Shown: positions 1-25,464, numbered from the stretch's first letter. The stretch is DNA of 32,000 nt from Opitutales bacterium (GCA_046881885.1 JBKSMP010000021.1:43046-75045); one strand, 5' to 3'. Notes: generated by a model not told the origin, from the letters alone. Program-made: numbers and translations.

Positions 1-459
1 ATTTTGGAAGAGCTTTTTAATGGCCTTTCAAGTTCTTTTGTTGAGGAAGTACGCGAAAAACGTGGATTAGCTTATACCGTAGGAGCTACACGCTTGTTGG
101 GCCTAAAGAATGGCATGTTCTGCTTGTTTGCAGGTACACAAAAAGAGCAAGTTCATATTGTTGAAGAAGAAATGTTTAAAGGCATTCGACGTGTTTTAGA
201 ACGGAAACTGACCCAGGAAGAATTCAATTTGTGTAAAACCTGCTTAAAAGTTAATCGGCAATTACGTCTACAAACGATTGGTCGTAAAGCATTTGGTATT
301 GGTTATAACGCTTTATTGGGCCTATCTATCGAACATTGGCTTGCTTATGATCAACAAATAGATGCGATCTCTTTAGAGGCATTTTATGACCGTTGTGCAC
401 CTTATTTAAGAGAAAATTTAGCGAACACACTTTTATTAACCCCATCTTCTAACTCATGA
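1..459 (+). CDS. M16-family peptidase, C-terminal fragment (5' end lies outside the window)
   Basis: Frame is open to the window edge. 'FVEEVREKRGLAYTVGA' resembles the M16 C-terminal-domain signature. ATGA overlap with the next M16 gene. Confidence 0.6.
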   Translation: MLEELFNGLSSSFVEEVREKRGLAYTVGATRLLGLKNGMFCLFAGTQKEQVHIVEEEMFKGIRRVLERKLTQEEFNLCKTCLKVNRQLRLQTIGRKAFGIGYNALLGLSIEHWLAYDQQIDAISLEAFYDRCAPYLRENLANTLLLTPSSNS

Positions 460-4967: not shown

Positions 4968-5643
4968 CGGCTTCCAACAAAATTTACCTGCACATGTTTT
5001 GGATTTTTGTAAGAAAATTCATGAAAATGGCGGAGAAGCTTGGATTGTTGGTGGTTGGGTACGTGATTGTTTTCTGAAAGAGAAATCGGTCTCGGATGTT
5101 GATATCGAGGTTTTTGGATTATCTTACGATGCATTAAAAATACTTTGTAAACCCATCTGTAAAACGGAATTTCCAAAATTTGGTATCTTCAAATGTGAAG
5201 GTATGGATCTTTCTTTGCCACGAATAGAATACTGCATTGGGAAACGTTATAATAGCTTCAAAACCATTTTGTTACCACATTTATCTTTTCGTAAAGCTGC
5301 ATTACGTAGAGATTTTACCATCAATACACTTGCTTGGAATCCGATAAGGTATGAATTACGCGACCCATTTCATGGAGTGAATGCCATAAAAACGAAACGA
5401 TTGTATCCTATCAGCAAACGTTTTACAGAAGATGCTTATCGTGTTTTGCGGGCAGCACAATTGATTGCACGATTTGGATTTGTTCCAACAAAACCATTGA
5501 TCTACTTGAGTTTAAAGATAAAATCTCCTATTTTGTCACAAGCCCACATAAAGCGTACGCTTGATTGCCTACATACCGCTCCTTATTCAAATACTGCCTG
5601 GCAATTCTTGGAACAAATTCATTGGGATAGGTTTTTAAGTTAA
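4960..5643 (+). CDS. class II tRNA nucleotidyltransferase/poly(A) polymerase family protein, unusually short (227 aa, head+neck only)
   Basis: 'GGEAWIVGGWVRDCFL...DVDIEV' and 'RRDFTINTLAW' catalytic head motifs, plus 'YRVLRAAQLIARFGF'. The ORF stops where the body/tail domains normally begin. Confidence 0.65.
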   Translation: MLNGFQQNLPAHVLDFCKKIHENGGEAWIVGGWVRDCFLKEKSVSDVDIEVFGLSYDALKILCKPICKTEFPKFGIFKCEGMDLSLPRIEYCIGKRYNSFKTILLPHLSFRKAALRRDFTINTLAWNPIRYELRDPFHGVNAIKTKRLYPISKRFTEDAYRVLRAAQLIARFGFVPTKPLIYLSLKIKSPILSQAHIKRTLDCLHTAPYSNTAWQFLEQIHWDRFLS

Positions 5644-5734
5644 CTGTACTAAGTACTACATTAAGATGAAAATATCCATAAATACAGTTGTAATACAACT
5701 TAACGCATTTCTCTACTCAAATTTCTTAGGGATT

Positions 5735-7342
5735 TTATTCCAAATAAATACAATCGTAAGGGTGCCAATCGAGCAAATTGGTATGCCAATTTTGAACAGA
5801 AGGATGCACCAAATGCGACGTAGCGCTTGAATGAAGTGGCAACAAAGGAACTTCATCCAAAATAAGAGCTTCTGCTTTCTGTAAAGTATGCATACGTTCT
5901 GAAACATCGTTCATGTTTGCGGCAGTATCTAACAAATGATCAAATACGTCGTTATGCCAATACGTGTAGTTGTTATAACTATTACTACGCCATAAATCGA
6001 GAAAGGTCGTTGGATCATTATAATCGCCAACCCAGCCACCACGTGCAATTTCGAAATTTTTCTCACGACGTCGATTTAAATATACTTTCCATTCCAAATT
6101 GATCGTTTCCACATCGATATTAAGTTCTTTTTTCCACATTTCTTGAATTGCAGAAGCAAGATACATTTGTCCTTCAGTTGTGTTAAAAATGAGCGATAAT
6201 TTAGGGAAATTTTGACCATTCGGATAACCCGCTTCCGCTAATAACTTTCGAGCAAGATCTGCATCTTCTTCAATAGGATTAATACAGTGAAAACCACAAC
6301 AACCTTCAGGAACCAACTGAAAAGCCGAACGATGTTTAATACAAAAAAGGTCATTCCCCATTAAAGCATCGCGATGCAATGCCAGATTAAGTGCTTTACG
6401 AACACGGACATCGTCCAATGGTTTTATTTTTGTATTAAAGATATAATAAAACGTTCCAAGATAAGGATGGATTTTTAACTGTTCATCTTTTTTCTGGTAA
6501 TATTCCTTTATTTTAGAATAAGGAACATTTTCCGTAATATGCAATTGTCCACGCCTAAAAGCACGCTCCTCAGTAGCATGATCACTAATCGGCTTGAAAA
6601 CAATACCATTAAGCTTTACGCATGATTCGTTCCAATACAATTTATTTTTAGCAAGCTCAATTTTTTCACCCACTTTCCAGTGTTTAAGCACAAAAGGCCC
6701 ATTACCAACAAAATCTTGTACACGCGTCCAAGTAGGATCTCGTGTAAATTCTCCATTACAACGTTTTAGCGTCTCACGATGAACCGGATAAGCTGCAGCT
6801 TGCATCAAGAGGGAAAGAAAGTAAGCCGTTGGACTTTCCAAAGTAAATTCTAAGGTTAAAGCATCAAGTACTTTAATACCAACCTTGTCAAATGAGAGTT
6901 CATTGTTATAAAACTGTTTCGCATTTTTAATCACAAAAAAAGAAGTAGCTCCGGAAGCGCCAACAGCAGGTGTAAGCAAACGCTGAAATGAAAACAAAAA
7001 GTCTTCTGCTTCTATTTTATCGCCATTACTCCAAGTAGCATTTGGCCGCAAATAAAATGTATAACGTAAACCATCTGTACTTACTGTCCATCGCTCTGCC
7101 ACACCTGGTTCTGGTTCCAAAGTCTTTGGATGTGGCTTAACTAAACCTTCAAAAAGAGACCTAAGTACATTTTGTTCGGTAACTCCTGAAATACAATGTG
7201 GATCTAGGCCTTCTGGATCAGGGCCTATACCAACAAGCAGGATACCATCACGATAAGCACGTTGAACTTCTGTTTCTTTTTTAGAGCATCCCAAAAGTCC
7301 CAAAAGACTTACGAGAACAATGTAAACCAATTTAATTTGCAT
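5735..7342 (-). CDS. ABC transporter substrate-binding lipoprotein, family 5 (OppA/DppA-like)
   Basis: Lipobox 'LLGLLGC'. 535 aa with typical family-5 SBP stretches ('GLDPH', 'PYDCIYL' at the C-terminus). Confidence 0.85.
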   Translation of the reverse strand: MQIKLVYIVLVSLLGLLGCSKKETEVQRAYRDGILLVGIGPDPEGLDPHCISGVTEQNVLRSLFEGLVKPHPKTLEPEPGVAERWTVSTDGLRYTFYLRPNATWSNGDKIEAEDFLFSFQRLLTPAVGASGATSFFVIKNAKQFYNNELSFDKVGIKVLDALTLEFTLESPTAYFLSLLMQAAAYPVHRETLKRCNGEFTRDPTWTRVQDFVGNGPFVLKHWKVGEKIELAKNKLYWNESCVKLNGIVFKPISDHATEERAFRRGQLHITENVPYSKIKEYYQKKDEQLKIHPYLGTFYYIFNTKIKPLDDVRVRKALNLALHRDALMGNDLFCIKHRSAFQLVPEGCCGFHCINPIEEDADLARKLLAEAGYPNGQNFPKLSLIFNTTEGQMYLASAIQEMWKKELNIDVETINLEWKVYLNRRREKNFEIARGGWVGDYNDPTTFLDLWRSNSYNNYTYWHNDVFDHLLDTAANMNDVSERMHTLQKAEALILDEVPLLPLHSSATSHLVHPSVQNWHTNLLDWHPYDCIYLE

Positions 7343-8812
7343 CTAGTTTCAATAGTTTTACAGCTGCCAATACACGCTCTTTAACTTCATGAAAATTTCC
7401 TTTGGCGTCAATGGTTACAAAAGGCATCTTGCCTTTTAAGCTTTGTAATGCTGTGAAAGTTTCTTGCATAAAAATTTGATAACGTTGACGAGCGATTTCT
7501 GGATCTAAGTCAGTTTGACGAACCTCTTGCAAAACACCTTGGCCCGACTTGAGAATACGTTCATTATGTTCTTTAGCGCGTTCTCCACGATACAATTGAC
7601 GACGAACACTTTCATCCTCATCCAAAGTTAACACAATGACAGAAAACAAAGGATGGTAACCTTTTTCCTTCAAAGCACGATAAAGTCGATAAATACTATA
7701 AACTTGCTCTTGGGTCCTTGGAAATCCATCAACGACAACACCATCTTTATAAATAGGATCTTGCAAAGCATTGAATACAGAAGAAATGACAGTAGCATCA
7801 TCCAAAAGCACTCCACGATTAATTTTCTCACGCATCTCTGGAGTATTGAACAAACTACTTGCAATTAATGGATTGGGACATAAATGTCCATATTCAATAA
7901 TATAACGCTCATTTGTACCTTTTCCTGCGCCTGGTGCTCCACTTAACCAAACAATCTTATTGGGAATGCTTTCCAAGCTAATGGAATCTATTAAAAGAGA
8001 TTGTTCGGAATTCTCTGAAATACAATGCGGATCTAGACTTTCTGAATCAGCGCCCGTACCTATAAAAAGGATACCATCACGATGAACCTCTTGAATTTTC
8101 GCTGCTTTTTTGGAGCATCCCAAAAGTCCCAAAAAGCTTACAAGCACAATATAAACAAGTTTATTTTTCATTTTTCGTCTAATTTCAATAATTTTACAGC
8201 TGCCAATACACGCTCTTTAACTTCACGCAAACTTCCATTACTATCAATGGTTATAAAGGGCATCTTACCTTTTAAACTTTGCAATGCAACAAACGTCTCT
8301 TGCATAAAAATTTGATAACGTTGACGAGCAATTTCTGGATCTAAATCCGTTGGTCGCACCTCTTTCAAAACCCCTTGTCCGGTCTTACGTATACGTGCAT
8401 TATATTCTTTAGCACGTTCTCCACGATACAATTGACGACGGACACTTTCTTCCTCATCTAAAGTCAAAACAATCACAGAAAACAAGGGATTGTAACTTTT
8501 TTCCTGCATTGCACGATAAAGCCAATAAATGCTATAAGCTTGCCCTTGAGTCCTTGGAAATCCATCAACCACTAATCCATCCTCATAAATTGGATCTTGC
8601 AAGCCACTAAATACAGAAGAAATAACGGTAGCATCATCTAGAAGCAGCCCACGATTAATTTTTTCACGCATCTCTGGACTATTGAGCAAACTACTTGCGA
8701 TCAAAGGACTCGGATATAAATGTCCATACTCAATGATATAACGCTCGTTAGTACCTTTCCCTGCACCCGGTGCTCCGCTTAACCAAACTATCTTATTGGG
8801 AATGCTTTCCAA
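7151..8812. repeat. two-copy tandem direct repeat, unit ~825 bp (copy L 7151-7976, copy R ~7992-8812)
   Basis: Hand alignment. The 5' ~190 nt of the OppA-like gene and the 3' ~640 nt of the kinase gene each occur twice in the same order at roughly 80-85% identity. A 15-nt junction filler lies at 7977-7991. Confidence 0.8.
7332..8171 (-). CDS. chimeric lipoprotein-signal::adenylate-kinase-family protein
   Basis: Intact 279-aa ORF. Residues 1 to ~60 parallel the OppA-like N-terminus (MKNKLVYIVLVSFLGLLGCSKK vs MQIKLVYIVLVSLLGLLGCSKK; both then have RDGIL..G.G.D.E.LDPHCIS). Residues 66-279 are ~85% identical to 8168-8869. P-loop GAPGAGKG and DGFPRT are retained. Confidence 0.75.
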   Translation of the reverse strand: MKNKLVYIVLVSFLGLLGCSKKAAKIQEVHRDGILFIGTGADSESLDPHCISENSEQSLLIDSISLESIPNKIVWLSGAPGAGKGTNERYIIEYGHLCPNPLIASSLFNTPEMREKINRGVLLDDATVISSVFNALQDPIYKDGVVVDGFPRTQEQVYSIYRLYRALKEKGYHPLFSVIVLTLDEDESVRRQLYRGERAKEHNERILKSGQGVLQEVRQTDLDPEIARQRYQIFMQETFTALQSLKGKMPFVTIDAKGNFHEVKERVLAAVKLLKLDAN

Positions 8813-8869
8813 CAAATGACCATCCGTGTCTAATTTTTTTAAAAAAGAGTCTAACTGTTGTGCTTCCAT
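8168..8869 (-). CDS. adenylate kinase / NMP kinase family protein
   Basis: P-loop 'LSGAPGAGKGT', 'VVDGFPRTQGQ', and a late 'R.TDLDPE...R..Y' segment in adenylate-kinase order. ATGA overlap with the downstream chimeric gene. Confidence 0.75.
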   Translation of the reverse strand: MEAQQLDSFLKKLDTDGHLLESIPNKIVWLSGAPGAGKGTNERYIIEYGHLYPSPLIASSLLNSPEMREKINRGLLLDDATVISSVFSGLQDPIYEDGLVVDGFPRTQGQAYSIYWLYRAMQEKSYNPLFSVIVLTLDEEESVRRQLYRGERAKEYNARIRKTGQGVLKEVRPTDLDPEIARQRYQIFMQETFVALQSLKGKMPFITIDSNGSLREVKERVLAAVKLLKLDEK

Positions 8870-8941
8870 AAATCTTTCCTTTCCAAACTAATACATCTAA
8901 TACAATAAAACGGCACTTTTCTAGAAAAAAATAGGAATTTT

Positions 8942-9766
8942 TTATAAAAAATAATTTCTTTGACGTTCCGAAATTGGCATTTGCAAAAATTCCATTACCT
9001 TCAACATATCTTCCCAAACAATACGTTTTGAAGCATTTGTAGCGTTTCGAAGCAGATAAGATGGATGATAAGTAATCATCAAAGGAACACCATTGAATTC
9101 AAACCAATTACCACGACAATCCCGCATACGTCTTTGAGAATCATGTCCAAGTAAGCCACTAACAGCCGTTGCGCCTAAAGCCACAATAACTTTAGGTTTT
9201 ACAATATTCAATTGCCCTTTCAAATATGGCAAGCAAAACTGCATTTCCTCTTGTGTCGGCGGACGATTTCCAATGTGATTCGGCGTTTCTGGCCGCCAAT
9301 TCATAATGTTTCCAATATAAACATCAGAACGTTTCAGCCCCATTGCTTCAATGATTTTTGTAAGCAACTGCCCTGCTCTTCCGACAAATACCTCACCTTG
9401 CTCTTCTTCGTCCGCTCCAGGCGCTTCTCCACAAAAAAAGATATCTGCATCCAAATTTCCACTGCCAAACACAAGCTTTTTGCCTGGATACAAATGCTTC
9501 AAACAATGCGGACAGGTTAAAACACGCTGCTTAAGCCACTTCCATTGTTCTTCTTTTGTCCCTTCGGGTAAAGTAAAAGCTTCAGGTTGTTCCATTTTAC
9601 TTTCGACTTGCATGACTTCAATTCCTTCCACTTCATGATCTTCCTCTATGTGCGAGGCTTGCAAATACTGCTTTAAAACGTCCGGATTGAGTGGAAAATG
9701 GACCTCTCCTAAAGCTTTTTGTGCTTTCAAAATCGTCTTTAACAAATCCTGTATGGGATCCGTCAT
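8942..9766 (-). CDS. uracil-DNA glycosylase, family 4, with ~100-aa N-terminal extension
   Basis: 'FFCGEAPGADEEEQGEVFVGRAGQLL' and C-terminal 'YHPSYLLRN' are family-4 UDG motifs. 4-nt overlap with fabV. Confidence 0.8.
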   Translation of the reverse strand: MTDPIQDLLKTILKAQKALGEVHFPLNPDVLKQYLQASHIEEDHEVEGIEVMQVESKMEQPEAFTLPEGTKEEQWKWLKQRVLTCPHCLKHLYPGKKLVFGSGNLDADIFFCGEAPGADEEEQGEVFVGRAGQLLTKIIEAMGLKRSDVYIGNIMNWRPETPNHIGNRPPTQEEMQFCLPYLKGQLNIVKPKVIVALGATAVSGLLGHDSQRRMRDCRGNWFEFNGVPLMITYHPSYLLRNATNASKRIVWEDMLKVMEFLQMPISERQRNYFL

Positions 9767-10962
9767 GCATTCAACAAATGCTTTATAGGACGTTGAGCTT
9801 CAACATCTGCATCGTAATCGATACCCGCACATTCAAAGCCAAACAACTGCAAGAAGTTTTCTTGATAACCATCAAAATCACTCAATTGATGCAAATTTTC
9901 CGTGTTTATCTTCGCCCAAATCGCTTGTACTTCTTCTTGCACTTCTGGAAGTAGTTCACGATCGTCTAAACGAACACAGGTTTCACGATCTTGCTGCAAA
10001 GGAACTTTATGATCAAACAAGCCTGCAAACAAACGATAAATTTGCTCAATACAATCTTCATGCAAGCCCTTCTCTTTCATCACTTTAAACAGGACGGAAT
10101 TGTATAAAGGAACAACTGGAATGGCAGAACTTGCTTGAGTTACAACCGCCTTATTTACCGAAATAAGCGCACGACCTTGGAGCTTTTCCTGCAGGAATTG
10201 ATTCAATTTTTCAGCAGTTTGCGCGAGATGTTCCTTAGCACGACCAATCGTTCCCGACTTGTAAATCGGCCAAGTAACTTCAGGACCAATATAAGAATAA
10301 GCTATCGTACTTGCTCCTTTTTCCAATAAATTTTCTGCAACCAAAAGCTGGATCCATTCTTCCCAATCTTCACCTCCCATAACCTTGACCGTTTGAAAAA
10401 CATCGTCTTCGGTAGCCGGTTCTAAAGATGTTTCATAGACTTCACCTTTATCGGTATTAACAGTTTTGCTCGTAAATGTCTGCCCAACTGGTTTTAAAAC
10501 AGATTTGTACATATTGCCATCTTTATCGGTACGACGCGGTGCTGCCAAACTGTAAATAACACAATCAACGCTTCCCATTTTTTCGCGCAGTTCACGAACA
10601 ACTTGAGCCTTAAAATCTGCCGAAAAAGCATCACCATTCATCGAATAGGCCTTTAAACCTTGAACCTCAGCAGCTTTTTCAAAAGCAACCGTATTGTACC
10701 ATCCTGGAGAAGCAGGTTTGGTATCATCCCCTGGTCTCTCAAAAAATACACCAAAAGTATCAGCTTTACCTCCCATTGCACTTACAATACGACTGGCAAG
10801 TCCATAACCCGTTGAAGCTCCCAAAATAAGTACGCGCTTCGGCGCCTTTTCAAAAGCTCCTTGTTGCAAAACATACTCCACTTGCTTATTTACTTGAGCT
10901 TCACAACCATCTGGATGGGCTGTAATACATATAAATCCTCGAACTCTCGGTTTTATGATCAT
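9763..10962 (-). CDS. fabV: trans-2-enoyl-CoA/ACP reductase (FabV/TER family)
   Basis: N-terminus 'MIIKPRVRGFICITAHPDGCEAQV' and 'LILGASTGYGLASRI' are characteristic of FabV. 399 aa. Confidence 0.85.
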   Translation of the reverse strand: MIIKPRVRGFICITAHPDGCEAQVNKQVEYVLQQGAFEKAPKRVLILGASTGYGLASRIVSAMGGKADTFGVFFERPGDDTKPASPGWYNTVAFEKAAEVQGLKAYSMNGDAFSADFKAQVVRELREKMGSVDCVIYSLAAPRRTDKDGNMYKSVLKPVGQTFTSKTVNTDKGEVYETSLEPATEDDVFQTVKVMGGEDWEEWIQLLVAENLLEKGASTIAYSYIGPEVTWPIYKSGTIGRAKEHLAQTAEKLNQFLQEKLQGRALISVNKAVVTQASSAIPVVPLYNSVLFKVMKEKGLHEDCIEQIYRLFAGLFDHKVPLQQDRETCVRLDDRELLPEVQEEVQAIWAKINTENLHQLSDFDGYQENFLQLFGFECAGIDYDADVEAQRPIKHLLNA

Positions 10963-11305
10963 GATTACAGTGTGACAAGTTCTGCCAGAAGGTCAAAAAT
11001 TTTCTTATGAAAAATAGAGGTTATGAAAAATGAAAGCCAAAACATTATAAAACATCCTGTAAAACTCGGAGAATAAAAAAGAAAACAAGTGGTGATAGTA
11101 CTTAAGCTAAGGTATCTGGCCAAGGGAAAGTCCGCGATCATTTAAAAATTTGGGAATGGATGTCGATGTACAATGGTAGCGCACAGCACAAATATGCCAT
11201 TTTCGAGGTGTGAAAAAGTATGTTTGATTATAAACATCCTGCAAACAAAAGGTAAAAAATTTTCTTCAATTTTTGCAGAATATTCATTTCTTAAGCAAAA
11301 AAATC

Positions 11306-11334
11306 TTTACAGAAGGCTCAAGCTCGTTTAAATT
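11306..11334 (+). promoter_or_regulatory. candidate sigma70-type promoter for the LysM-ftsW-murG block
   Basis: TTTACA (11306-11311), 17-nt spacer, TAAATT (11329-11334). It lies only ~14 nt before the ATG at 11348, so the leader would be very short. Confidence 0.25.
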
Positions 11335-11347
11335 TTAAGTAATAAAA

Positions 11348-12337
11348 ATGAAAGTAAATAAAATTTTACATCTGGTAGGTGGTGCTTGTTTATTTTTACA
11401 AGGTTGTGAAACTTTGCATTTCAAAAGCAACGATAAAGAAACAAGTAACTTGAATGAAAAAAGTACGTTAATTGCTTCAGAAGCTGAAGAAACTGAACAA
11501 GCGGTTTCTGTTCACGAGTTAGAAGCAACAACGCAATTAAGCAAGCAACACTTTCGTGCTCAACCCCGTCGTCCTATTTTAGAAAAACAAATCGACGAAG
11601 TTGTAGAAGACGATTCTCAATCAGATGCAAAAGCCACATCGTATACAGTCCAAAAAGGTGATACCTTATACAAAATTGCTAAAAAATTTAATGTAACTGT
11701 TGCAAAATTGGTACAAGTTAACAATTTAAATGACCGGAATCGTTTGTCCATTGGAATGGAATTGATAATCCCTAATGGAACAAACAGTTTCTCCACAACA
11801 CCTACTCATGTTTATGTGGTTCAAAAAGGTGATACCTTAACCTCTATAGCCAACCGCTTTCAAACAACAATTGCTGCACTTAAGCAAAATAACAAACTGA
11901 CGAAAGATACGATTTATAGTGGGCAAAAGCTCTACGTTAATGGTACTGCAGAAGCGCAACCTTCTTCAAAAGAATCAAGTTCTAGCTTACCCCCTATAGA
12001 CACTGAAAAGTATGTTGTAAAAGCAGGTGATGTGCTTTACAATATTGCTAAACGTTGCCGGATGACCGTCCAAGAATTAATGCAAATCAATAACATCCAG
12101 GATCCTAAAGCTTTACAAATTGGACAAGTGCTTTATTTAAAGAAAACGATCACACCAGATCCTGTATCACCTATAGAAAATGCGTCCTCATCCCAGATAG
12201 AACCTCAACCAGAAGTTGTTTTGGCAGAGCCTACACCTGTTCCACAAAACTCTTCTATGGTTGAAGAAGATAATTTCGAAGATCTTTTTGAAGAAGGAAA
12301 CGACATTCCAGTTGTTCCTTTAGAAGATATCAAATAA
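11348..12337 (+). CDS. lipoprotein with three LysM peptidoglycan-binding domains and an acidic C-terminal tail
   Basis: Lipobox 'FLQGC'. Three repeats of 'Y.V.KGDTL..IA......L...N.L' follow. No M23 or amidase domain is visible. Confidence 0.8.
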   Translation: MKVNKILHLVGGACLFLQGCETLHFKSNDKETSNLNEKSTLIASEAEETEQAVSVHELEATTQLSKQHFRAQPRRPILEKQIDEVVEDDSQSDAKATSYTVQKGDTLYKIAKKFNVTVAKLVQVNNLNDRNRLSIGMELIIPNGTNSFSTTPTHVYVVQKGDTLTSIANRFQTTIAALKQNNKLTKDTIYSGQKLYVNGTAEAQPSSKESSSSLPPIDTEKYVVKAGDVLYNIAKRCRMTVQELMQINNIQDPKALQIGQVLYLKKTITPDPVSPIENASSSQIEPQPEVVLAEPTPVPQNSSMVEEDNFEDLFEEGNDIPVVPLEDIK

Positions 12338-14618: not shown

Positions 14619-14696
14619 GGTGGTTGTAGCTCAATTGGTCAGAGCACTGGATTGTGGTTCCAGGGGTTGCCGGTTCGAGCCCGGTCTACCACCCCA
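14619..14696 (+). tRNA. tRNA-His (anticodon GTG), CCA end encoded
   Basis: Cloverleaf folded by hand. Acceptor gtggttg/ctaccac has one U-U mismatch; D stem is gctc/gagc. Anticodon stem is ctgga/tccag with loop ttGTGgt (GTG at 14654-14656). T arm is gccgg-ttcgagc-ccggt. An extra 5' G(-1) opposite C73 is the tRNA-His hallmark. A genomic CCA is present. Confidence 0.9.
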
Positions 14697-14787
14697 GTTT
14701 GTCTTTAATCGCTTTTCATAATAAGCTTATTTTGAAACTGTTACATAATCATTTGACTTTTTTGTCGTTTTTTTATTTAATGAGTAT

Positions 14788-14994
14788 ATGAATGTAGTTT
14801 CTTCTAGTACACAAACCCCCCTTATTCAAAACAATTCAAGCGTAACAACTCCTAAACAAGGTACATACGGAAAGTATACTCTTTCCTCAGGAAATGCAAT
14901 GCTTATAAATACGACATCCATGCATCACGATTTTTCAATCACTTCTCTACCAGCTCACGAAATTGCTATCCTACATCGGCAACAAAACTTCTAA
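14788..14994 (+). CDS. hypothetical small protein (Ser/Thr/Asn-rich)
   Basis: 68-aa ORF in otherwise unassigned DNA just downstream of the tRNA. No motif or clear RBS. Confidence 0.25.
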   Translation: MNVVSSSTQTPLIQNNSSVTTPKQGTYGKYTLSSGNAMLINTTSMHHDFSITSLPAHEIAILHRQQNF

Positions 14995-15079
14995 AAATTA
15001 AAGATTCCTCACTAAGACACGTATAAAAGTGCATTTACAAGGAATCTTCTACGCTATAATTTTTTCAGAACGTTCAGTA

Positions 15080-15409
15080 TTACTGCCTCGGAATAACCGA
15101 TAAATACAATACATCCATATCGGTATCATTGATAAGTGTATGGGTATGTCCTTGAGGACAATAATGAAGATTACCTGCTGTAATACGTTCTTCAACACCA
15201 TCACAAATCGCTTTTATACTCCCCTTAAACACATAGAACATTTCACAGTTATCGGTATGAGTATGTTCGCCTATCGACGCACCTGCAGGTAAAGTTCCAT
15301 ACATAATCTTATTCTTATCTTCCAAAACAATTTTAGCAAACACACTCCCCTCCCCTTTGTAGAAATTCTTAAGCTCTTTTACAGGTAATTTTGAAAAATC
15401 AATATACAT
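15080..15409 (-). CDS. cupin-domain protein
   Basis: 'GASIGEHTHTDNCEMFYVFKG' and 'HYCPQGHTHTL' match the two cupin metal-binding motifs (G.H.H...E / H). 109 aa. Confidence 0.75.
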   Translation of the reverse strand: MYIDFSKLPVKELKNFYKGEGSVFAKIVLEDKNKIMYGTLPAGASIGEHTHTDNCEMFYVFKGSIKAICDGVEERITAGNLHYCPQGHTHTLINDTDMDVLYLSVIPRQ

Positions 15410-15619
15410 ACCAAATCCTTTCTATATTAGCATTTATTTATAAATTTAATTACAAACATCTGCGCCCGCTAAATTAGCCCTGCTATTTATAGGTTGTCAA
15501 CTTTAAAAATGGTAAATTTAATTATATTTATTAGACCTCCTGCAAAAGTCTGAGAGGCAAGAATGCCAAGGATAAAAAAGGATTGAAATAATAAACCTCC
15601 TACTCAAGAAACAGTATTT

Positions 15620-15882
15620 ATGACGGATCAGCGGAGTCAAGTAAGAAAAGTTTTAAAAATGTGTGAGCAGGCTAAAACGGGCTTGGGGAGATGGCACAGA
15701 GGCAGAAGCGCGTTGCCAGCCGACGGTATGGAATTGGTGACTTACGGGAACATTTGCTATTGTTGTTGATGTATTATCGGACGTATACGACACATTTGTT
15801 TTTAGCGCAAATTTTCAAGGTGGATGAGAAATGCGAAACTGTTCCTGAAATTCGCTTCTCTAGGTTTGCAAGGTCTTGTTGA
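15620..15882 (+). mobile_element. remnant of an IS transposase N-terminus (HTH of DDE_Tnp_4/IS5-like type), frameshifted and truncated
   Basis: 'GIGDLREHLLLLLMYYRTYTTHLFLAQIFKVDE' resembles the HTH_Tnp_4 pattern (ls.ed.LL.tLmYLR.Y.T...la..FgVseS). The upstream ATG at 15620 is in another frame. No DDE catalytic domain follows. Confidence 0.5.
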
Positions 15883-16220
15883 ACTGTTTCCAAAATAGAA
15901 ATGGTTGATAGTTTATTCAATTTTTTCTCTGTAGATATTAGCAAAAATTAATTGAGCAATTTGTCTATTTATCTGTTATTATCAGGCAAATAGCTGAAAA
16001 TTGCAAAAGATTATTCGTTGTTTTTAGAACTAACATTCCGTCAAGCATTAAGTAAAAATGACTAAAACCACCATCATTTTTTCAAAATAGGGCATCATTT
16101 TAGGTGAAGCTTGAACACTTTGTAAAATGTCAATATTTTTAAAGTATGCTTTAAAAACTCTGCAGAAAAAACTTTTTTACAAAAATTTCTAAAGATTGTT
16201 CAAAACACGTCATTATTTTA

Positions 16221-17013
16221 CTAATTATGTCTTATTTTTGTGTTACCAAAGTTGTTTTTTCCTGTACCAGAACGGTCTGTTATCAGTAAATCGGCCTCAT
16301 AGAGACTATTTTCACTTAGGAGTTGATCTTCCCAAATAAAATTGGGCAATGTTTTTATCTTTTGCTCTAATTGAATTGCTAATACTTTACGACGCTTTAA
16401 AAACTCAGGATGCGGTCTAACAATAACACGGTAATCCGTTTTACTTAATTCTTCAATAATGGTTTCAATGCCGTTTTCTAGCAAACTAGCCATGCTCCAA
16501 GTCGGCGCAATTAATATCGTTTTTTGTTTAAATTGCTTTTTATACGTTTGAAAATTTCTATATACAATATCCATTCTTGGATAGCCTATTGGCAATAATT
16601 TTTTTGAGGCAAATTGTAAACCTGTTCACGTTTTTGTATTTCCTTAACATGATGCGGACCTACACAAAAAATGGTATCATACGCATCAAAAGATTTTTCA
16701 TTATATTGCAAATGAGTACTTGAAAAAGCATGAAACAAATAGATATATTCTTTCGTATGTTTTGATTTTTCAGATGATACGTATTTAAATCCGGCATTGT
16801 AAACACAAAACACCTTGCATCCATTTTATCAAAAACAGATTTTAAGAAAAAATTAAAATAAAAAGGATATAAACGTTCATGGTGGCTTTTTAATATGGGA
16901 TCATTAATATCTGATGTTATATAACTGCATGTTATAGAAGGATCTTTTAATAATTTCTCCAAAAAAGGACCAAAAGTTTGATAATAAATGCTTCTTTCCG
17001 AATAGAAACCCAC
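16221..17013 (-). pseudogene. CDP-glycerol glycerophosphotransferase (TagF/TagB-like) pseudogene
   Basis: Three consecutive minus-strand ORFs in different frames (16660-17013, 16586-16813, 16221-16595). Together they read like one Glyphos_transf protein ('FYSE..YYQTF.P....L', 'IAPTWS', 'VRPHPE', 'ADLLITDRS'). The C-terminus is short and there is no proper start. Confidence 0.65.
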
Positions 17014-17037
17014 GGGTAAAACCCGTGGGTTTCTATT
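17001..17037. repeat. perfect 17-bp inverted repeat (AATAGAAACCCACGGGT-aaa-ACCCGTGGGTTTCTATT), bidirectional-terminator-like hairpin
   Basis: Read directly. GC-rich core CCCACGGG/CCCGTGGG is flanked by T-rich tails on both strands. It overlaps the 5' end of the TagF-like pseudogene. Confidence 0.8.
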
Positions 17038-17184
17038 GGTTGTATTTATCTAAAACCTTCAGCGCTTAAAATTTTAAAAGAAAATAATTGTTTTTGTGAT
17101 CAGCTTAATGAACATCGTTTATCGGGCATAGTTGATTGCTTACAACAAAAAGGATTCAAGGTAGCTTCTGTAAACGCTCACGGT

Positions 17185-19065
17185 TTGTGGACCGAAGTTG
17201 ACAATCCCATTGATGTTGCACGTTTCGTTTTAACAACGAAAGCTCAAACCTTACATGCACTTAGAACGCATGTTAAAAAATCCAAAATTCTCGACCAAAT
17301 TCATTTTTCAACCCAGCAATGGTTCAAGAATCAAGATGAAGTAATCCGTACGATAATGGAACATTTTGGCAACAAACCACTTGTTGTGCGAAGCAGTTCT
17401 TTACAAGAAGATAGCTTTACTAAAGCCAATGCAGGAAAATTTGAAAGCCTATTAAATGTTTTACCAGAACGTAGTGCCTTGGTTAAAGCTATTACTACGG
17501 TTATTCATTCTTATGGGACCAAAAACAATGCTGATTTGGTATTGGTGCAACCTATGTTGCATGATGTCAATGTCAGTGGTGTTGTTTTCACACGAAGCCT
17601 TAATTACGGAGCACCTTATTACATTGTCAATTACGACAAAAAAGATACAGCAGCTATCACAAGTTGCGCTAGCAAAACGGATGAAATCTTTTATCATTGG
17701 AAGTATGCAAACATTCCTGTGCACGCCCCTGATTTTTACAAAAAATTATTCGAAGCTATCCAAGAAATCGAAAAGTTAACACAATTTGATGCTCTTGATA
17801 TTGAATTTGCGGTTACAAATGATGGGGAATTGTATATTTTCCAAGTTCGCCCCATTGCATCCCAACATTTGAGAGAGGTTGGCGATCATCGTTTAAATGA
17901 ATATTTAGAATGTGCTGCAAAACGATTTGAAGATTATCAGCTAGCACAGCCTGATGTACAGGGCAATACTACAATCTTTGGTGTAATGCCTGATTGGAAC
18001 CCGGCTGAAATTGTTGGAACAAAGCCGCATCGCTTGGCTATTTCTCTTTATCAGCCATTGATTACGAATGATATTTGGGCACAGCAGCGTGCAGAATTTG
18101 GTTACAAAGATGTACGCCCTTATCCGCTTATTATTAATTTTGTTGGACATCCATATGTCGATGTACGCGCAAGTATACATTCGTTTTTGCCAAATAGCTT
18201 ATCTAGCGATACCACTCATAAATTAGTCAATTTTTATGTAAATCGCTTGAGAAATAATTCCGAATGGCATGATAAGTTAGAATTCATGGTAATGCCAACG
18301 TGTTACACGGCTGATTTTAAAGATCGTTGGTATGATCTTCTTATAAATGAGGCAAAACTTTCCGCAAATGAATATCAGCAGTATGAAAAAGCTTTATTTG
18401 ATTTAACGCTATCTGCCTTTGAAAAATGCCAAAAGTGTTACGAAGAAATGGATGCTATCGAGAAACGATTTTCACGTATTTCCGATACGCATCTAAAACC
18501 TTTAGATAAAATTTATGTTTTGATGCAAACTTGCAGAAAAGGTACACTTAACTTCTCTCATTTGGCACGTTGTGGTTTTATTGCAAGTTCATTCTTGAAG
18601 TCCTTTGTTGCTAAGGGTATCATTTCTGAGGAAGAAAAGATCTCACTTGTGGAAAATATCCAAACGATTACAGGACAATTTTTTGAAAAGACACAGCAAG
18701 CTGTTGATAAAGAAGATTGCATCAAAACGTATGGTCATTTGAGACCTGGAACATACGACATTACTTCACCTACCTACCGTTCCGATCCCGATAAATATCT
18801 GTTTTGTAATGCCAGTGGTAAAGCTATTGAACCAGAAAAAACTACAAACATTGTCCAAAATTACAATGCATTAGAGAAATACCTTAAACAAACTTTTGAT
18901 ATCTCTTTAAATGGTTTTAAGTTGTTTTTGAAGCAAGCCATCGCGGGACGTGAATATTCCAAGTTTGTTTTCACAAAATATATTTCTTTAATTTTGGATC
19001 TCATAGAAGAAATGGGGAAAGCTTACGGTTTTACGGCGAATGATATGGCGCACGTACTGGAATAA
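17185..19065 (+). CDS. PEP-utilising enzyme family protein (PEP synthase/PPDK N-terminal ATP-grasp domain), probably truncated at both ends
   Basis: 'LVVRSSSLQEDSFTKANAGKFESLLNV' resembles the PpsA/PPDK ATP-grasp signature. The only start is a TTG without an RBS. The frame is open upstream to 17089, encoding a nucleotidyltransferase C-terminus-like peptide ('GLWTEVDNPIDV'). No convincing phosphohistidine or PEP-binding domain precedes the stop. Confidence 0.6.
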   Translation: MWTEVDNPIDVARFVLTTKAQTLHALRTHVKKSKILDQIHFSTQQWFKNQDEVIRTIMEHFGNKPLVVRSSSLQEDSFTKANAGKFESLLNVLPERSALVKAITTVIHSYGTKNNADLVLVQPMLHDVNVSGVVFTRSLNYGAPYYIVNYDKKDTAAITSCASKTDEIFYHWKYANIPVHAPDFYKKLFEAIQEIEKLTQFDALDIEFAVTNDGELYIFQVRPIASQHLREVGDHRLNEYLECAAKRFEDYQLAQPDVQGNTTIFGVMPDWNPAEIVGTKPHRLAISLYQPLITNDIWAQQRAEFGYKDVRPYPLIINFVGHPYVDVRASIHSFLPNSLSSDTTHKLVNFYVNRLRNNSEWHDKLEFMVMPTCYTADFKDRWYDLLINEAKLSANEYQQYEKALFDLTLSAFEKCQKCYEEMDAIEKRFSRISDTHLKPLDKIYVLMQTCRKGTLNFSHLARCGFIASSFLKSFVAKGIISEEEKISLVENIQTITGQFFEKTQQAVDKEDCIKTYGHLRPGTYDITSPTYRSDPDKYLFCNASGKAIEPEKTTNIVQNYNALEKYLKQTFDISLNGFKLFLKQAIAGREYSKFVFTKYISLILDLIEEMGKAYGFTANDMAHVLE

Positions 19066-19399
19066 TCGTATGGAAGATCCGCTTAAAGATGCCGAAACAT
19101 TTCGTTGGGATCTGGCTTCACGGAAAATTTTTGAATTGGGTAAAAAACCAAAAACCTTGGATGATATTCAAGGTCAATATATTGGTTTGTTTAAAATTTC
19201 AGCCCCGTTTATTAAAACATTTAAGCAAATATACGAAACATTTAAAGCTGTTCATCTAAATTATAAAAATGCGTACATGACAGACTTTTTGCAATTCCTC
19301 ATTGATAAAAACTTTCCTGTATTTGGTGTTCCCGTACGCAATAAATGGGCAGAGTTTGATACCGTTAACGATTTAAATTTGGAACTTGATTGGTTATGA
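19040..19399 (+). pseudogene. sugar/phospho-alcohol nucleotidyltransferase fragment (middle and C-terminus only)
   Basis: 'GQYIGLFKISAPF' and 'KWAEFDTVNDL' resemble the distal half of LicC/MobA-like NTP transferases. The N-terminal G-rich NTP loop is absent. Overlaps the previous ORF in another frame. Confidence 0.5.
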
Positions 19400-19587
19400 A
19401 AAAATCTTTTAAATCTTCATTATTTGTATCTTTATTCCCTTGGGCATTCTTTTGTTTTCAATACAATCAATGCCATGGATATTTTGCAGAAAGTTACGAA
19501 GTTTTGTTCAGCTTTTTTTGGCTTATTTAATGGCTTACGGCACTAAGGAAAAGAAATTAGAGAACTTCGATACGTCATGCTTTAGCT

Positions 19588-19646
19588 TGTGACAGTGTTT
19601 TACGAGTGATCATGCCGGATAGAGGACGTTTTTGACGACTGTCACA
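19588..19646. repeat. inverted pair of TGTGACAGT motifs (19588-19596 and reverse complement 19638-19646), 41-bp spacer
   Basis: Read directly. It is the same 9-mer family as the iteron cluster at 24420-24524 and lies ~240-300 bp upstream of the integrase start. Confidence 0.6.
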
Positions 19647-19884
19647 GTTGTCAAAAAGGAGATAAATACAACAACCGATTGTAGAAATTTCACCGCGGAA
19701 AGTTTTCATAACCTGTGCTAAACACAAAGACGAATATTGGGTGTTAGTCATTTGATAGAATCTGTAAGATTCTTTGCAAGTATTCCCTCCCAACCTTAAA
19801 TTAAAAGCAACATCCAAATCTTACCACACTGGATATATTTTGACAAATTTTTATCTAAAAGGTTGCAACAGAAAGAATAAGTTT

Positions 19885-20511
19885 ATGGCAACGTATAAGG
19901 AAAATTTAACCCAAGGTTTTATTGATAAAATTTCTACCCATAAAACCAACGGAAGCAAATCTGCATTCGATAGTTATTATGACACCAAAGAGCGCGGATT
20001 GGTTTTGTTGGTAACGACGAATGGCGTAAAAACGTTTTATCTGCTTACGAAAATTCAAGGTCGTACTCGGTGGATAAAGATAGGACGTTTTCCGGAATTG
20101 ACCGTTACAAATGCCCGTGAGGTAGCTCAATTGTACAAAGCGCAATTGGCTAAGGGGGAAGATCCTGAAGTTAAAAAGAAGCAATTGAAAGCGGAATTAA
20201 CGTTCGGCGAGCTCTTTAAAATGTTCATGGAACGCTACTCCAAACCGCAGAAACGATCTTGGAAGGAAGATGATCGGACCATCAACAAATACTATCACCA
20301 TTGGTTCAATCGCAAATTGTCTGCGATTTCCAAATACGATGTTAATTTGTACCACAACCAATTGCGTGCTGAACGCGGAATTTACGTTGCTAATCGAATG
20401 CTGGAGCGATTGAAGACCATGTACAACAAAGCGATCGAATGTGGTTGGAACGGCGAAAATCCGGCCATCGGCATTAAAATGTTCAAAAGACCTACTCTTT
20501 ACTTTGGATAA
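19885..20511 (+). pseudogene. P4-type tyrosine integrase, N-terminal ~208 aa only (catalytic domain deleted)
   Basis: Arm-binding DUF4102-like N-terminus ('ERGLVLLVTTNGVKTFYL...IKIGRFPELTVTNAREVA') and the start of the core-binding domain. Similarity ends after 'NPAIGIKMFK' with a stop at 20511. No R-H-R-Y domain follows. Confidence 0.75.
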
Positions 20512-20706
20512 TGAGATTATTACTTCTTACGAAAAGGTACTTGTGGATTTTTTGAAAATCTTAAAAAAAATCAATATAACACACGAAAAAACAAACTTCA
20601 AGAATTCCTTAAAGTTGTACAATCAAGTCAATTTGTTAAAATATTAGGAATAATACAAAAGATTCAGATATTTTCTTATGTTTGTTTATGTAAAAAAAAT
20701 AGCCTA

Positions 20707-21225
20707 ATGGAATTGAGAAAAAATATTTCAGAAGCCAAAGTTGGTCTCGAACAATGTGCCAATGCATTATTAAAAATATGGGAAAAAATCAGACAAGATA
20801 AGGATTTTCCCCAAAATCTAGATCTTTGGGAGCCAAAAATAAAAAATTTACTTCAAGTGTTCTATAACACAGCGTCCGATATTTATGCCCTAAATAAGGA
20901 TTGCGAGACAAAAGATCTTATCTTTAATGCACAAACAGAAAATGTAAAATTGCTGGAATATGAGGATTTTTTAAATAATTCTTGCAGCTATACCGAAACA
21001 GAGTTTGGGCTGGTTGATGTAAACTTGCATCAATTTTTTACAAATAACTACAATAGTCCTCATTGGTTATGGATCGCAGAGTTTTTAAACTGTTTATTTG
21101 ACCGCGCAGAAACAGAAAGTTCAATGAGAAATAATTTAAAAAACCAATTGCAACAAACTGTAGTATTGTTACCACACATCGGTCTTTATTATCTGAAAAA
21201 AAAGGATGAAAAGAAAACTTTATAA
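20707..21225 (+). CDS. hypothetical protein (172 aa), no recognisable domain
   Basis: Clean ORF with an ATG start in AT-rich DNA between the integrase remnant and hipA. Converges on hipA with a 6-nt overlap. Confidence 0.5.
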   Translation: MELRKNISEAKVGLEQCANALLKIWEKIRQDKDFPQNLDLWEPKIKNLLQVFYNTASDIYALNKDCETKDLIFNAQTENVKLLEYEDFLNNSCSYTETEFGLVDVNLHQFFTNNYNSPHWLWIAEFLNCLFDRAETESSMRNNLKNQLQQTVVLLPHIGLYYLKKKDEKKTL

Positions 21226-22443
21226 AACATGCTGAAAAGCAGGTTCCATCTCTTCTTGTTCAGAAGCACTTAAGCCGAAATACTGCGCAATAGATCGCCA
21301 TTGAGCGACAGCCGAGCGTTGTTTGGTTAGAATAGCGTTGGCTTCTTGCTTCGTAAGACGGAAATACTCAGAAACCGATAGTGCTAAATCGATCGAAGTT
21401 GAACTGTCATCTTCTGTGATGTTAAGTTGCAAATGAGAAGTTCTGTCCGGATTGGGATTAACATCGTAAAGTGGCGAAAGTTCGAGCCCATGTGGAGAAT
21501 TTCTTAAAAATCCATGATTGCGCAAATGATCATCTGTGTTGGAAATAAGAATTGAAAACAGCATTCGGCTCCAGAGTTCTCGCAGGTCGTTTTTTACATG
21601 GACACATCGAGTGGTTATAATGTCCGCAAGATTCAAATAGCTGTAATTTCCACTTTCACCATCGTTGGCATTTAACAATGTCATGGCTGAAAAAAATGGA
21701 ATTCTTTTTTCTCCCTGTCGATCAAAACGTTTTGCCAATAAAACAAGTTTATTGTTAATCGTTACCATACGCCATTGTTGTACGCGCAATCCAGCTTGTT
21801 GAGCCAACGTTAGTGCGACAGCTTCCCAATGAACCGCATTATCATTTTGTTTAGGGAATTTGGCTATATATAAATTTTTTCCGTCCACAACAGATGCTTT
21901 GGGACGAGACCCACCAAGCGAAGAACCGGGAATGAGTAGTTCTTTTAAGTCGCTAAAAGTTTCGTTATGAGTTAAGACATTTTCTGAAGCCATCAGCAAT
22001 TTGGATAAGGTCATAATGGACGGAATTTTTTTGCCCGTTTGTGTTAAAAAATCCCCTTTAGGCTCTCTTTTAAACCGCAGTGCTCCTTGACGCGAAAAAT
22101 CATTCAATTGCGTCAAAAAATCAATTTCTCGGAACTGTCGGCGAGGACGTTTTTCTGCTTGAGCCATTTTTGCTTCGTTTCTCTTAATAAGCAAACGTCC
22201 CCAAGAATCTGGTGCACAATCCTCAAATGAAGCAAACAATGCCTTTCGATTGTCCGTATGGAATGTACCCTCTGTTAATGGTAAAAATGGTTCCAGTTCG
22301 AAATTATTCAGATACCTTAGCCAAGATTCTTCGTATTTAAAGGAGGCACTTTCTTTTCCATTGTGATAGTACGACCAAAGCCGACCTACCGGGACATCTT
22401 GGCCGTCCAAATTGCAATAAACATAAAAAAGTGCTTCACTCAT
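21220..22443 (-). CDS. hipA: HipA-family serine/threonine kinase toxin
   Basis: N-terminal coupling domain ('VGRL...F.Y...W', 'APDSWGR') and kinase core ('GSSLGGSRPKA', catalytic loop 'ISNTDDHLRNHGFL'). 4-nt overlap with the upstream HTH gene. Confidence 0.85.
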   Translation of the reverse strand: MSEALFYVYCNLDGQDVPVGRLWSYYHNGKESASFKYEESWLRYLNNFELEPFLPLTEGTFHTDNRKALFASFEDCAPDSWGRLLIKRNEAKMAQAEKRPRRQFREIDFLTQLNDFSRQGALRFKREPKGDFLTQTGKKIPSIMTLSKLLMASENVLTHNETFSDLKELLIPGSSLGGSRPKASVVDGKNLYIAKFPKQNDNAVHWEAVALTLAQQAGLRVQQWRMVTINNKLVLLAKRFDRQGEKRIPFFSAMTLLNANDGESGNYSYLNLADIITTRCVHVKNDLRELWSRMLFSILISNTDDHLRNHGFLRNSPHGLELSPLYDVNPNPDRTSHLQLNITEDDSSTSIDLALSVSEYFRLTKQEANAILTKQRSAVAQWRSIAQYFGLSASEQEEMEPAFQHVL

Positions 22444-22760
22444 AGAAAATTCCTTTTCGTAACAATTCGTTTAGGCAATGTATCACTTGCCAAAGCTTGC
22501 CCAACCTTATCATTCGCAATATCGGCTACCACACTTAGATTTTCCAATAACCCTAAAACATATAGACACGTTGCATAAAACCCAATGGAAACTTGAGAAC
22601 TCCCTAGTTCAATCGAACGAAGCGTCATTCGAGTTGTTCCAACCCGATCTGCCATCAATTGCGTCGATATCCGCCGCCGAATTCGGGCTTCACGAATGTC
22701 ATGCCCCAACTTTTTTAACGTCTTTTTTACGTTCATAGGCAAAGATATTTGCGATCTCAT
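22440..22760 (-). CDS. hipB: Xre-type HTH antitoxin (HipB-like)
   Basis: 'LGHDIREARIRRRISTQLMADRVGTTRMTLRSIELG' is a typical Xre/HipB HTH. Translationally coupled to hipA. An alternative start lies at 22736. Confidence 0.75.
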   Translation of the reverse strand: MRSQISLPMNVKKTLKKLGHDIREARIRRRISTQLMADRVGTTRMTLRSIELGSSQVSIGFYATCLYVLGLLENLSVVADIANDKVGQALASDTLPKRIVTKRNFL

Positions 22761-22906
22761 ATGTATAATATATTATCCGTTATATAAAATAAGGTATGAT
22801 ATATTTATCTTTATGTCAATATTTTTGTTATACCGGGGATAGAGATTCAAAAAAATATTTTTCCATCCCCTGTGTAGCGTAAATCGAAATAAGTTAAACT
22901 GGGTGC

Positions 22907-25459: not shown

Positions 25460-25464
25460 AAAAC

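Follow-up and report, generated by a model that had tools for sequence, protein, structure and literature searches.

The 32,000-nt stretch of DNA from an Opitutales bacterium analyzed here (GCA_046881885.1, JBKSMP010000021.1:43046-75045; hereafter, the window) carries on its minus strand three consecutive overlapping genes encoding an adenylate-kinase-like protein, a chimera that associates a lipoprotein signal with a second copy of this kinase, and an OppA-like lipoprotein. The calls of open reading frames (ORFs) reproduce exactly the order and limits proposed in a preliminary description of this DNA. The first gene (kinase A, 8168..8869 (-), 233 aa), which is the 5′ copy, encodes the parental, putatively cytoplasmic, adenylate-kinase-like nucleoside monophosphate (NMP) kinase. 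It has kept its original N-terminal helix (Pfam ADK, 40.2 bits) and is the orthologue of single-copy kinases found in relatives (P0004-P0006, L011 and L012). In the chimera gene (7332..8171 (-), 279 aa), the OppA signal peptide, its lipobox and a linker are joined to kinase residues 20-233. The third gene (5735..7342 (-), 535 aa) encodes a family-5 solute-binding lipoprotein (Pfam SBP_bac_5, 308 bits) whose lipobox, LGLLGCSKK, is kept among orthologues; it is both the donor of the signal peptide and the 3′ flank of the duplication.

The chimera lies at the join of two repeat units. Unit 1 (7992..8812 (-)) includes codons 20-233 of kinase A, junction 1 and the 5′ end of the chimera, which derives from OppA, and unit 2 (7151..7976 (-)) includes the kinase core of the chimera, junction 2 and the 5′ end of the true OppA gene. 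The likeness of the two units, initially seen by eye, was measured by aligning 7151-7976 with 7992-8812: they share 83.9% identity over 814 nt (767 bits, compared to 25 bits for the best of 50 shuffles). At the protein level, chimera residues 66-277 align without any gap with kinase A residues 20-231 (182/212 identical, 86%, E=1e-139), very close to the ~85% first counted by hand, and residues 1-60 align with OppA residues 1-60 (39/60 identical, 65%, E=4e-16), in agreement with the proposed copying of about 60 residues from the OppA-like N-terminus. The chimera can thus be divided into: (i) codons 1-19 (8115..8171 (-)), with the n-region MKNK, the hydrophobic core LVYIVLVSFLGL and the lipobox L-L-G-C (Cys19), (ii) codons 20-57 (8001..8114 (-)), a remnant of the mature OppA N-terminus that constitutes a fast-evolving tether, (iii) codons 58-65 (7977..8000 (-)), the fusion junction, of ambiguous parentage (SLLIDSIS in the window, SLWGDSVK in the related lineage L001), and (iv) codons 66-279 and the stop (7332..7976 (-)), the copy of the kinase core with its P-loop, DGFPRT motif and LID arginines. 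Per-codon comparison with both parents indicates an OppA origin through codon 57 and a kinase origin from codon 66; since divergence between these limits is too great to assign a parent, the fusion point cannot be placed more precisely than within codons 58-65. In another reading of this sequence, which is equally possible, OppA codons 62-64 (TCT CTT TT) would have been retained after a 12-nt deletion. Examples of the k-mers that characterize the junctions of the window are GATTCCATTAGCTTGGAAAGCATTCCC and GACGAAAAATGAAAAATAAACTTG.

The stop/start overlaps had been described as retained. Both junctions do overlap, but the overlaps differ: the chimera/OppA junction retains the ancestral 11-nt overlap (..GATGCAAATTAA), whereas the kinase A/chimera junction harbors a derived 4-nt ATGA overlap that arose through the insertion of 7 nt and two substitutions. 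The derived LDEK(stop)/MKNK is encoded in the window by the upstream junction (8160-8180) only, the downstream one (7332-7345) being ancestral (..LDAN(stop)/MQIK). In L001, both junctions (232-252 and 1061-1081) encode ..LDEK(stop)/MKNK.., a pattern that points to gene conversion from one unit of the repeat to the other in this lineage.

The database search with the chimera placed its kinase in a family annotated as "nucleoside monophosphate kinase" in Opitutales and Puniceicoccales (Verrucomicrobiota). In relatives, the locus was identified by the block located upstream of kinase A (8942..10962), which consists of the UDG gene (8942-9766 (-)) and the FabV gene (9763-10962 (-)); the FabV-UDG order is also found in L003-L008, L010-L014 and L020. 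Seven related lineages (L003-L008 and L011-L014, the latter being GTDB species representatives) carry an unduplicated FabV-UDG-kinase (233 aa)-OppA (535 aa) arrangement, with the 11-nt overlap and devoid of chimera. The metagenome-assembled genomes (MAGs) of these relatives indicate Opitutales living in animal guts (Hadza gut, horse faeces). In a neighbour-joining tree of kinase cores, the chimera of the window and its orthologue from the L001/L002 lineage group together (100% bootstrap) as sister to the kinase A clade (83%). This clade includes kinase A and its closest single-copy orthologues (window, L011 and L012), and the further single-copy kinases lie outside. The N-terminus of the chimera is closest to the local OppA. 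The locus therefore shows head-to-tail units, a chimera at their join, intact parents on both sides, unduplicated relatives and chimera parts nested in the local parents, as expected for a chimera born by tandem duplication. Because seven lineages carry the unduplicated kinase-OppA arrangement, the K, O′::′K, O model of the preliminary description holds, and the kinase-core tree agrees with it. Taken together, these comparisons make an origin by duplication and fusion virtually certain. A tandem duplication of ~830 bp, with ends at about codon 15-20 of the kinase gene and codon 57-64 of the overlapping oppA-like gene, would have led to the in-frame fusion. The product would have combined the OppA signal peptide, Cys19 of the lipobox and the ~40 N-terminal residues of mature OppA with a complete kinase catalytic core. 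Sequence comparison indicates that this event happened once, in the ancestor of the window and L001 lineages.

The chimera is also found in other assemblies. Two more public ones from different ENA analyses (L018 and L019) carry FabV′-UDG-kinase A-chimera with 99.8% identity to the window (5-6 mismatches per 2.9 kb). Their contigs both begin at window position 10311 and end at positions 7342 and 7404, where the chimera has its 3′ end. The kinase copies have identical sequences there over ~34-55 nt, a stretch that acts as an assembly breakpoint, and the contig of the window covers the entire region. The L001/L002 lineage (~86% DNA identity; OppA dS 0.8) carries an orthologous 279-aa chimera (P0002), 85% identical over its full length to that of the window; the two have their junction and the derived ATGA start in common. 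Both the occurrence of kinase A and chimera beyond a single assembly and the occurrence of the chimera in related genomes, which the preliminary description had raised as questions, are thereby established. Chimeras are rare, since the homology search identified only two chimera clusters (P0001, that of the window, and P0002) among 472 family matches. A scan of JGI metagenomes for further chimeras gave zero matches, and the exact protein P0001 had no entry in the contig index searched.

The Nei-Gojobori estimates of dN/dS (ratio of nonsynonymous to synonymous substitution rates) argue for maintenance of the chimera, as had been proposed, and a decaying pseudogene was ruled out on this basis (dN/dS 0.07). 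Over the 214 codons of the kinase core, the two orthologous chimeras differ with a dN of 0.054 and a dS of 0.73 (dN/dS 0.074). For the same core, the ratio is 0.113 between the two kinase parts of the window, a comparison already envisaged in the preliminary description, and 0.03-0.05 between kinase A and single-copy orthologues. Nonsynonymous change since the duplication is ~3.6x higher in the chimera than in kinase A, and this excess is mostly early: 20 substitutions at sites showing no or almost no variation among eight single-copy kinases are common to both chimeras, compared to two (window) and 11 (L001) later lineage-specific changes at such sites. The chimera carries, notably, a derived Cys98. 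A contrast of McDonald-Kreitman style also supports selection (fixed N27/S16 versus within-clade N16/S64 and N26/S58, Fisher p ~1e-5), but it is liberal owing to synonymous saturation. This distribution is that of a protein that changed in a burst and then came under constraint again. From these estimates, strong purifying selection has acted on the kinase core since this early burst. The chimera and kinase A both retain the 42 family-invariant residues; as initially noticed, both copies keep the P-loop GAPGAGKGT, the DGFPRT motif and full reading frames. It is thus very probable that purifying selection maintains the chimera.

The N-terminal parts of the chimera evolve differently. Codons 20-60, derived from OppA, display a dN/dS of 0.47 between chimera orthologues compared to 0.027 for the same codons in true OppA orthologues; to judge from these ratios, the OppA remnant has lost the OppA-like constraint and drifts as a flexible tether. 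On the other hand, the signal peptide and lipobox are kept: the two chimeras share LGLLGCS without any difference, and their hydrophobic cores are separated only by conservative changes (V/I, V/A and F/L). The lipobox was searched using a regular expression of the PROSITE PS51257 type (positively charged n-region, uncharged h-region and [LVI][ASTVIL][GAS]C within the first ~35 residues). Both chimeras, each with Cys19, and nine OppA orthologues were positive, while kinase A and the proteins P0030 and P0031 were negative; the lipoprotein signal attributed earlier to the chimera thus passes this rule. In the AlphaFold2 model, the predicted local distance difference test (pLDDT) score is 42-58 for chimera residues 1-65 and above 90 for residues 66-279, so that residues 1-65 are modelled as a signal helix followed by a disordered segment. 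The top PDB matches retrieved by Foldseek are all adenylate kinases (AK1, AK5 and bacterial Adk; probability 1.0, template modelling score 0.7-0.76, 18-23% identity). Since the AlphaFold2 confidence matches the dN/dS division of the N-terminal parts, the predicted anatomy of the chimera is an export signal, a lipobox, a flexible tether and a folded kinase.

This anatomy suggests a scenario in which translation of the chimera would be coupled to that of kinase A by the ATGA overlap, and its product would be exported by Sec, then lipidated and cleaved at Cys19 by the Lgt/Lsp lipoprotein pathway. The mature protein would be a membrane-tethered phosphotransferase facing the periplasm or the outside. 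It would most plausibly interconvert extracytoplasmic nucleotides, e.g., 2 ADP <-> ATP + AMP, kinase A keeping the cytoplasmic job. Because the adenylate kinase reaction is energy-neutral, an external supply of ATP would not be strictly needed. Export of the chimera as a true lipoprotein is probable, and its activity as a nucleotide kinase outside the cytoplasm has about an even chance of being correct.

The chimera and kinase A both belong to the ADK family (PF00406; 39.7 and 40.2 bits, respectively, with a gathering cut-off of 26.8). However, the best NCBIfam adk score is 69 bits for a cut-off of 168, and all 21 adk models, including the equivalog TIGR01351, give scores far below their cut-offs; the best PDB sequence matches have E values of ~1e-8. 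Like canonical Adk (PF00406, TIGR01351), these kinases have the same three-domain fold, the P-loop GxPGxGKGT, the DGFPRT..Q motif, a LID and phosphate-binding arginines. They differ from it by a low identity (18-25%), an extra N-terminal helix and a helical insert in place of the usual LID; furthermore, canonical Adk does not carry a signal peptide, unlike the chimera. GAPGAGKGT, DGFPRT, RRQLYRG, VRxTDLD and ARQRY are invariant over 40 members of the family, chimera included. Sequence features thus identify an ADK-fold NMP kinase that is not the orthologue of bacterial Adk. The adenylate-kinase label given in the preliminary description stands for fold and family, but it designates only a distant relative and not an activity. 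In free-living Opitutales, the dominant forms of the family are 405-aa proteins with an extra C-terminal domain. For example, P0034-P0120 (Coraliomargarita, Lentimonas and Ruficoccus; 405 aa) share a conserved C-terminal domain of ~150 aa ending in ..GSEIRRGR and devoid of Pfam annotation (alignment A1, columns 325-466). Five proteins (P0184, P0186, P0221, P0239 and P0248) carry long N-terminal extensions rich in Ser, Thr and Arg that resemble organellar transit peptides, and the family may reach eukaryotes. In the Puniceicoccales MAG Cd354_bin116 (L015, 631-4642), a 235-aa kinase is not downstream of FabV-UDG; the two ORFs located upstream of it are presumably, from a reading of their sequence, the anaerobic ribonucleotide reductase genes nrdD and nrdG. 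This neighbourhood is a weak hint of a role of the family in nucleotide metabolism.

The chimera of the window is not the only member of this family with an export-like N-terminus. In the Opitutales MAG Horse_feces372 (L010; GCA_024407725.1, JAKSVZ010000010.1, 5309-7978), the FabV-UDG-kinase locus carries tandem kinases of 221 and 246 aa followed by a major facilitator superfamily (MFS) transporter. The extra N-terminus of the 246-aa kinase (P0030), MHYKKLILLGAIMFQGLCGFGE, was copied from the first transmembrane helix (TM1) of the MFS transporter encoded directly downstream, MHYGWVVLCVVTLLEGLSGFGR, and the borrowed helix has gained two N-terminal lysines (KK). The intergenic sequence is duplicated too, with a repeat period of 767 bp and 81-83% identity, while the relatives L020 and L021 are unduplicated. 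The MFS-TM1::kinase appears from its sequence to be a second, independent chimera generated by the same mechanism. As in the window, it is found at the same locus, belongs to the same family and borrowed its N-terminus from the downstream gene; its core displays a dN/dS of 0.074, at a dS of 0.95. It differs in that (i) the donor is the first helix of a transporter and not a lipoprotein signal, (ii) the whole kinase, including its N-terminal helix, was kept, and (iii) it arose in another lineage.

In addition, an exhaustive profile-free search and a second homology search revealed members of ~280-290 aa, many of them named as proteins of Puniceicoccales MAGs. Among these, 37/47 carry classical n-h-c signal peptides with AXA-like sites, compared to 0/73 with a classical signal-peptide N-terminus among the long forms (>=320 aa, mostly ~400 aa). 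In the signal-bearing members, the signal is followed by an acidic linker of ~50 residues and a complete kinase with all its catalytic residues intact. The signal-bearing set includes P0121, P0122, P0146, P0152, P0194, P0267, P0273 and P0275-P0318 (loci L025-L029). In the L026/L027 and L028/L029 lineages, the kinase gene is directly downstream of glgC; the L028 neighbourhood holds a TLC ATP/ADP translocase gene and that of L026/L027 a gene related to SctD of type III secretion systems. P0194 and P0273 were considered as chlamydial on account of the SctD-like and TLC translocase genes nearby, an assignment that was dropped because their named relatives are Puniceicoccales MAGs. In the kinase-core tree, signal-bearing proteins constitute one large clade and isolated lineages (P0121, P0122/P0146 and P0152), and P0030 and the window/L001 chimeras nest apart among cytoplasmic forms. 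This distribution suggests that export-like N-termini were acquired independently at least five times.

The ~285-aa Puniceicoccales kinases share with the chimera their family, size and architecture (export signal, low-complexity linker of ~50 aa and complete kinase core), but they form a separate old clade with type-I (AXA) signals instead of a lipobox and have retained the N-terminal helix. The chimera is not a member of this clade by descent: its core is only 36-37% identical to it and nests in the 233-aa cytoplasmic clade. An exported adenylate-kinase-like enzyme had been considered unusual. This is true when compared to textbook Adk, but not within the family, where signal-bearing members are common. 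Export thus appears to be recurrent among these kinases of the Planctomycetes-Verrucomicrobia-Chlamydiae (PVC) group, and because the architecture already exists in the family, functional export of the chimera is considerably more credible than from its lipobox alone.

Several other explanations of the locus have to be considered. A single kinase gene could have been spuriously duplicated during assembly; repeats trouble assemblers, and the short-read contigs of L018 and L019 do break at the end of the chimera. However, the two copies differ at 16% of positions, an assembler could not create 120 ordered differences together with a coherent fusion ORF, and three assemblies of the window lineage agree with two of another lineage. 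Given this divergence and these independent assemblies, an artefact was ruled out and its probability is practically nil. The chimera could also be a neutral or slowly decaying by-product of the duplication whose ORF survives by chance or as a relay of translational coupling to oppA, as the absence of chimera in the nearest relatives (L011 and L012) and the ~3.6-fold higher nonsynonymous rate might suggest. Nevertheless, the 279-codon frame is intact in two lineages at a dS of 0.73 with a core dN/dS of 0.074, every catalytic and family-invariant residue is kept, and selection for coupling alone would leave the amino-acid sequence unconstrained, so that a by-product is very improbable. The distribution of the chimera raises another question, since the two nearest sampled relatives, L011 (95-97% nucleotide identity to the window) and L012, whose MAGs come from SRP315200 and SRP225648, lack it, whereas the OppA tree is (((window, L011), L012), L001) with 99-100% support. 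The chimera is therefore accessory and not essential, and this patchy pattern requires two losses, a lateral transfer or a bypass during MAG assembly. A single gain and, later, two precise losses make up the simplest history. The duplicated segment could instead have been transferred laterally by homologous recombination among related Opitutales: vertical descent needs two precise losses according to the OppA tree, and the window differs from L011 by one cleanly inserted unit, on either side of which divergence does not peak. But the dS between the window and L001 chimeras (0.73) equals the divergence of the species (0.80 for OppA, 0.78 for a kinase A fragment), and precise loss is mechanistically easy by unequal crossover within the ~55-nt near-identical 3′ stretch of the kinase copies. 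The sequence of L011, kinase-A-like at essentially all informative sites and then continuing into the ancestral junction, would be the exact product expected from such a crossover. A recombination tract was sought in the flanks of the extra unit of the window by comparison to L011, but mismatches are evenly spread and no foreign tract was seen. Transfer thus seems unlikely, although clearly less so than a by-product, and the function of the chimera is the same under descent with loss or transfer.

Even if the chimera is functional, it may not be exported. Its N-terminus could be unprocessed or tether it to the cytoplasmic face, in which case the genome would encode, besides kinase A, another kinase that has diverged and is cytoplasmic or membrane-associated (dosage or subfunctionalisation), and the OppA piece would just be carried along. 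Consistent with this, purifying selection is demonstrated for the kinase core only, the OppA-derived mature part is relaxed, and the signal region is so short that its conservation is statistically weak. However, despite a dS of ~0.3-0.7, neither lineage has lost its n-region, h-region or lipobox, the only changes being hydrophobic-to-hydrophobic, and the donor signal, which works in a lipoprotein, has been kept by nine OppA orthologues. Moreover, other family members independently bear bona fide signal peptides, and the 20 substitutions of the early burst are in line with adaptation to a new compartment. A functional but non-exported chimera is thus rather improbable. Besides the absence of the chimera from L011 and L012, other points weigh against a selected, exported kinase: (i) the signal-peptide call is based on a pattern rule and on conservation, the latter drawn from just 19 codons in two lineages, (ii) the contrast of McDonald-Kreitman style is biased by synonymous saturation, (iii) the AMP-site Arg of "TGDxxR" (Arg36, E. 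coli numbering) aligns to Ala, "StGDmfR" being opposite "ypspliA" in HMMER alignments with PDB Adk chains, (iv) the NCBIfam adk scores lie far below cut-off, and (v) the supply of ATP beyond the cytoplasm is uncertain. Taking all this into account, the whole account, i.e., a fusion born by duplication, selected, and exported as a lipoprotein to act as an extracytoplasmic kinase, is in our view likely.

The other genes located near the locus in the window have housekeeping functions (M16 peptidase, RpiB, SIS-domain protein, PolyA_pol-domain protein, LysM protein, FtsW and MurG). A promoter and terminator scan of 5400-11400 found sites no commoner than in shuffles and zero terminators, and was uninformative on operon structure; the Rfam scan of the window found only a tRNA-His. 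The OppA-like lipoprotein is an orphan, as permease and ATPase genes are not adjacent to it, either in the window (5735-7342) or in its orthologues (L003-L014). In all single-copy relatives examined in the gut clade, there is an 11-nt overlap between its start and the kinase stop, a conserved translational coupling between a cytoplasmic kinase and an exported binding protein whose rationale is not obvious. Farther away, positions 14620-27400 resemble an integrated mobile island. The tRNA-His gene (14620-14696) is followed there by a low-GC, ORF-poor stretch (GC 0.30 at 16-17 kb). The putative island includes a 245-aa ORF with only the Arm-DNA-binding domain of an integrase (19774-20511), a HipA_C toxin-kinase homologue (21220-22443), a DUF3987 protein (23070-24443), a 626-aa ORF (17185-19065) whose sole match is a piece of ~60 residues of PPDK_N (ATP-binding domain of pyruvate phosphate dikinase), and several further ORFs without Pfam match.

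Join-point chimeras and extracellular nucleotide kinases are both already known, and the combination found here is a variant of them. Fusions at the join points of duplications were reportedly described in Salmonella by Anderson and Roth, and chimeric duplicates in Drosophila by Rogers and Hartl. As in the window, the duplication ends in two adjacent genes and generates parent 1, 5′-gene2::3′-gene1 and parent 2. Most described bacterial join-point chimeras are laboratory-selected and unstable, whereas the chimera of the window is old (dS ~0.65-0.75), conserved across lineages with ~86% DNA identity, under purifying selection and predicted to have changed compartment. Extracellular nucleotide kinases include Adk and Ndk of P. 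aeruginosa, Ndk of M. tuberculosis and eukaryotic ecto-adenylate kinase. Like the role proposed for the chimera, they carry out phosphotransfer on external adenine nucleotides, but they are housekeeping enzymes devoid of classical signal peptide, whereas the chimera is a dedicated paralogue with a Sec/lipoprotein signal. To our knowledge, no lipoprotein-anchored or Sec-signal-bearing kinase of the ADK family has been described, and we know of no characterisation of this Verrucomicrobia kinase family.

The locus is an unusually clean case of gene birth in bacteria, with parents, chimera, unduplicated outgroups, orthologous chimera and apparent losses all at hand. Because all of these are available, the mechanism, the timing and the selection can be read directly. 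The account of the origin is essentially proven, and the functional claim, which derives from sequence comparison and structure prediction, is well motivated. An enzyme is predicted to have been relocated to a new compartment in one step through the lipoprotein signal of a neighbour. The independent MFS::kinase and the old secreted clade argue that an extracytoplasmic kinase is adaptive in gut or host-associated Verrucomicrobia. We tentatively propose, as a possibility that we rate somewhat below an even chance, that this family was repeatedly recruited to the cell envelope, in an old clade with signal peptides, in several isolated signal-bearing lineages and in two recent chimeras that took their N-terminus from the exported or membrane protein encoded downstream, and reflects an unrecognised, selectively valuable extracytoplasmic nucleotide phosphotransfer in host-associated Verrucomicrobia. 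If this is true, these bacteria would possess a dedicated Sec-exported nucleotide kinase, which would bear on the handling of extracellular ATP/ADP in the gut and provide a tractable model of compartment switching. Such a kinase could equilibrate ADP, ATP and AMP within the periplasm or on the cell surface, in the service of scavenging, of energy parasitism beside ATP/ADP translocases, or of manipulation of host signalling by extracellular ATP. The chimera of the window would then be a natural experiment on the birth of an extracytoplasmic kinase.

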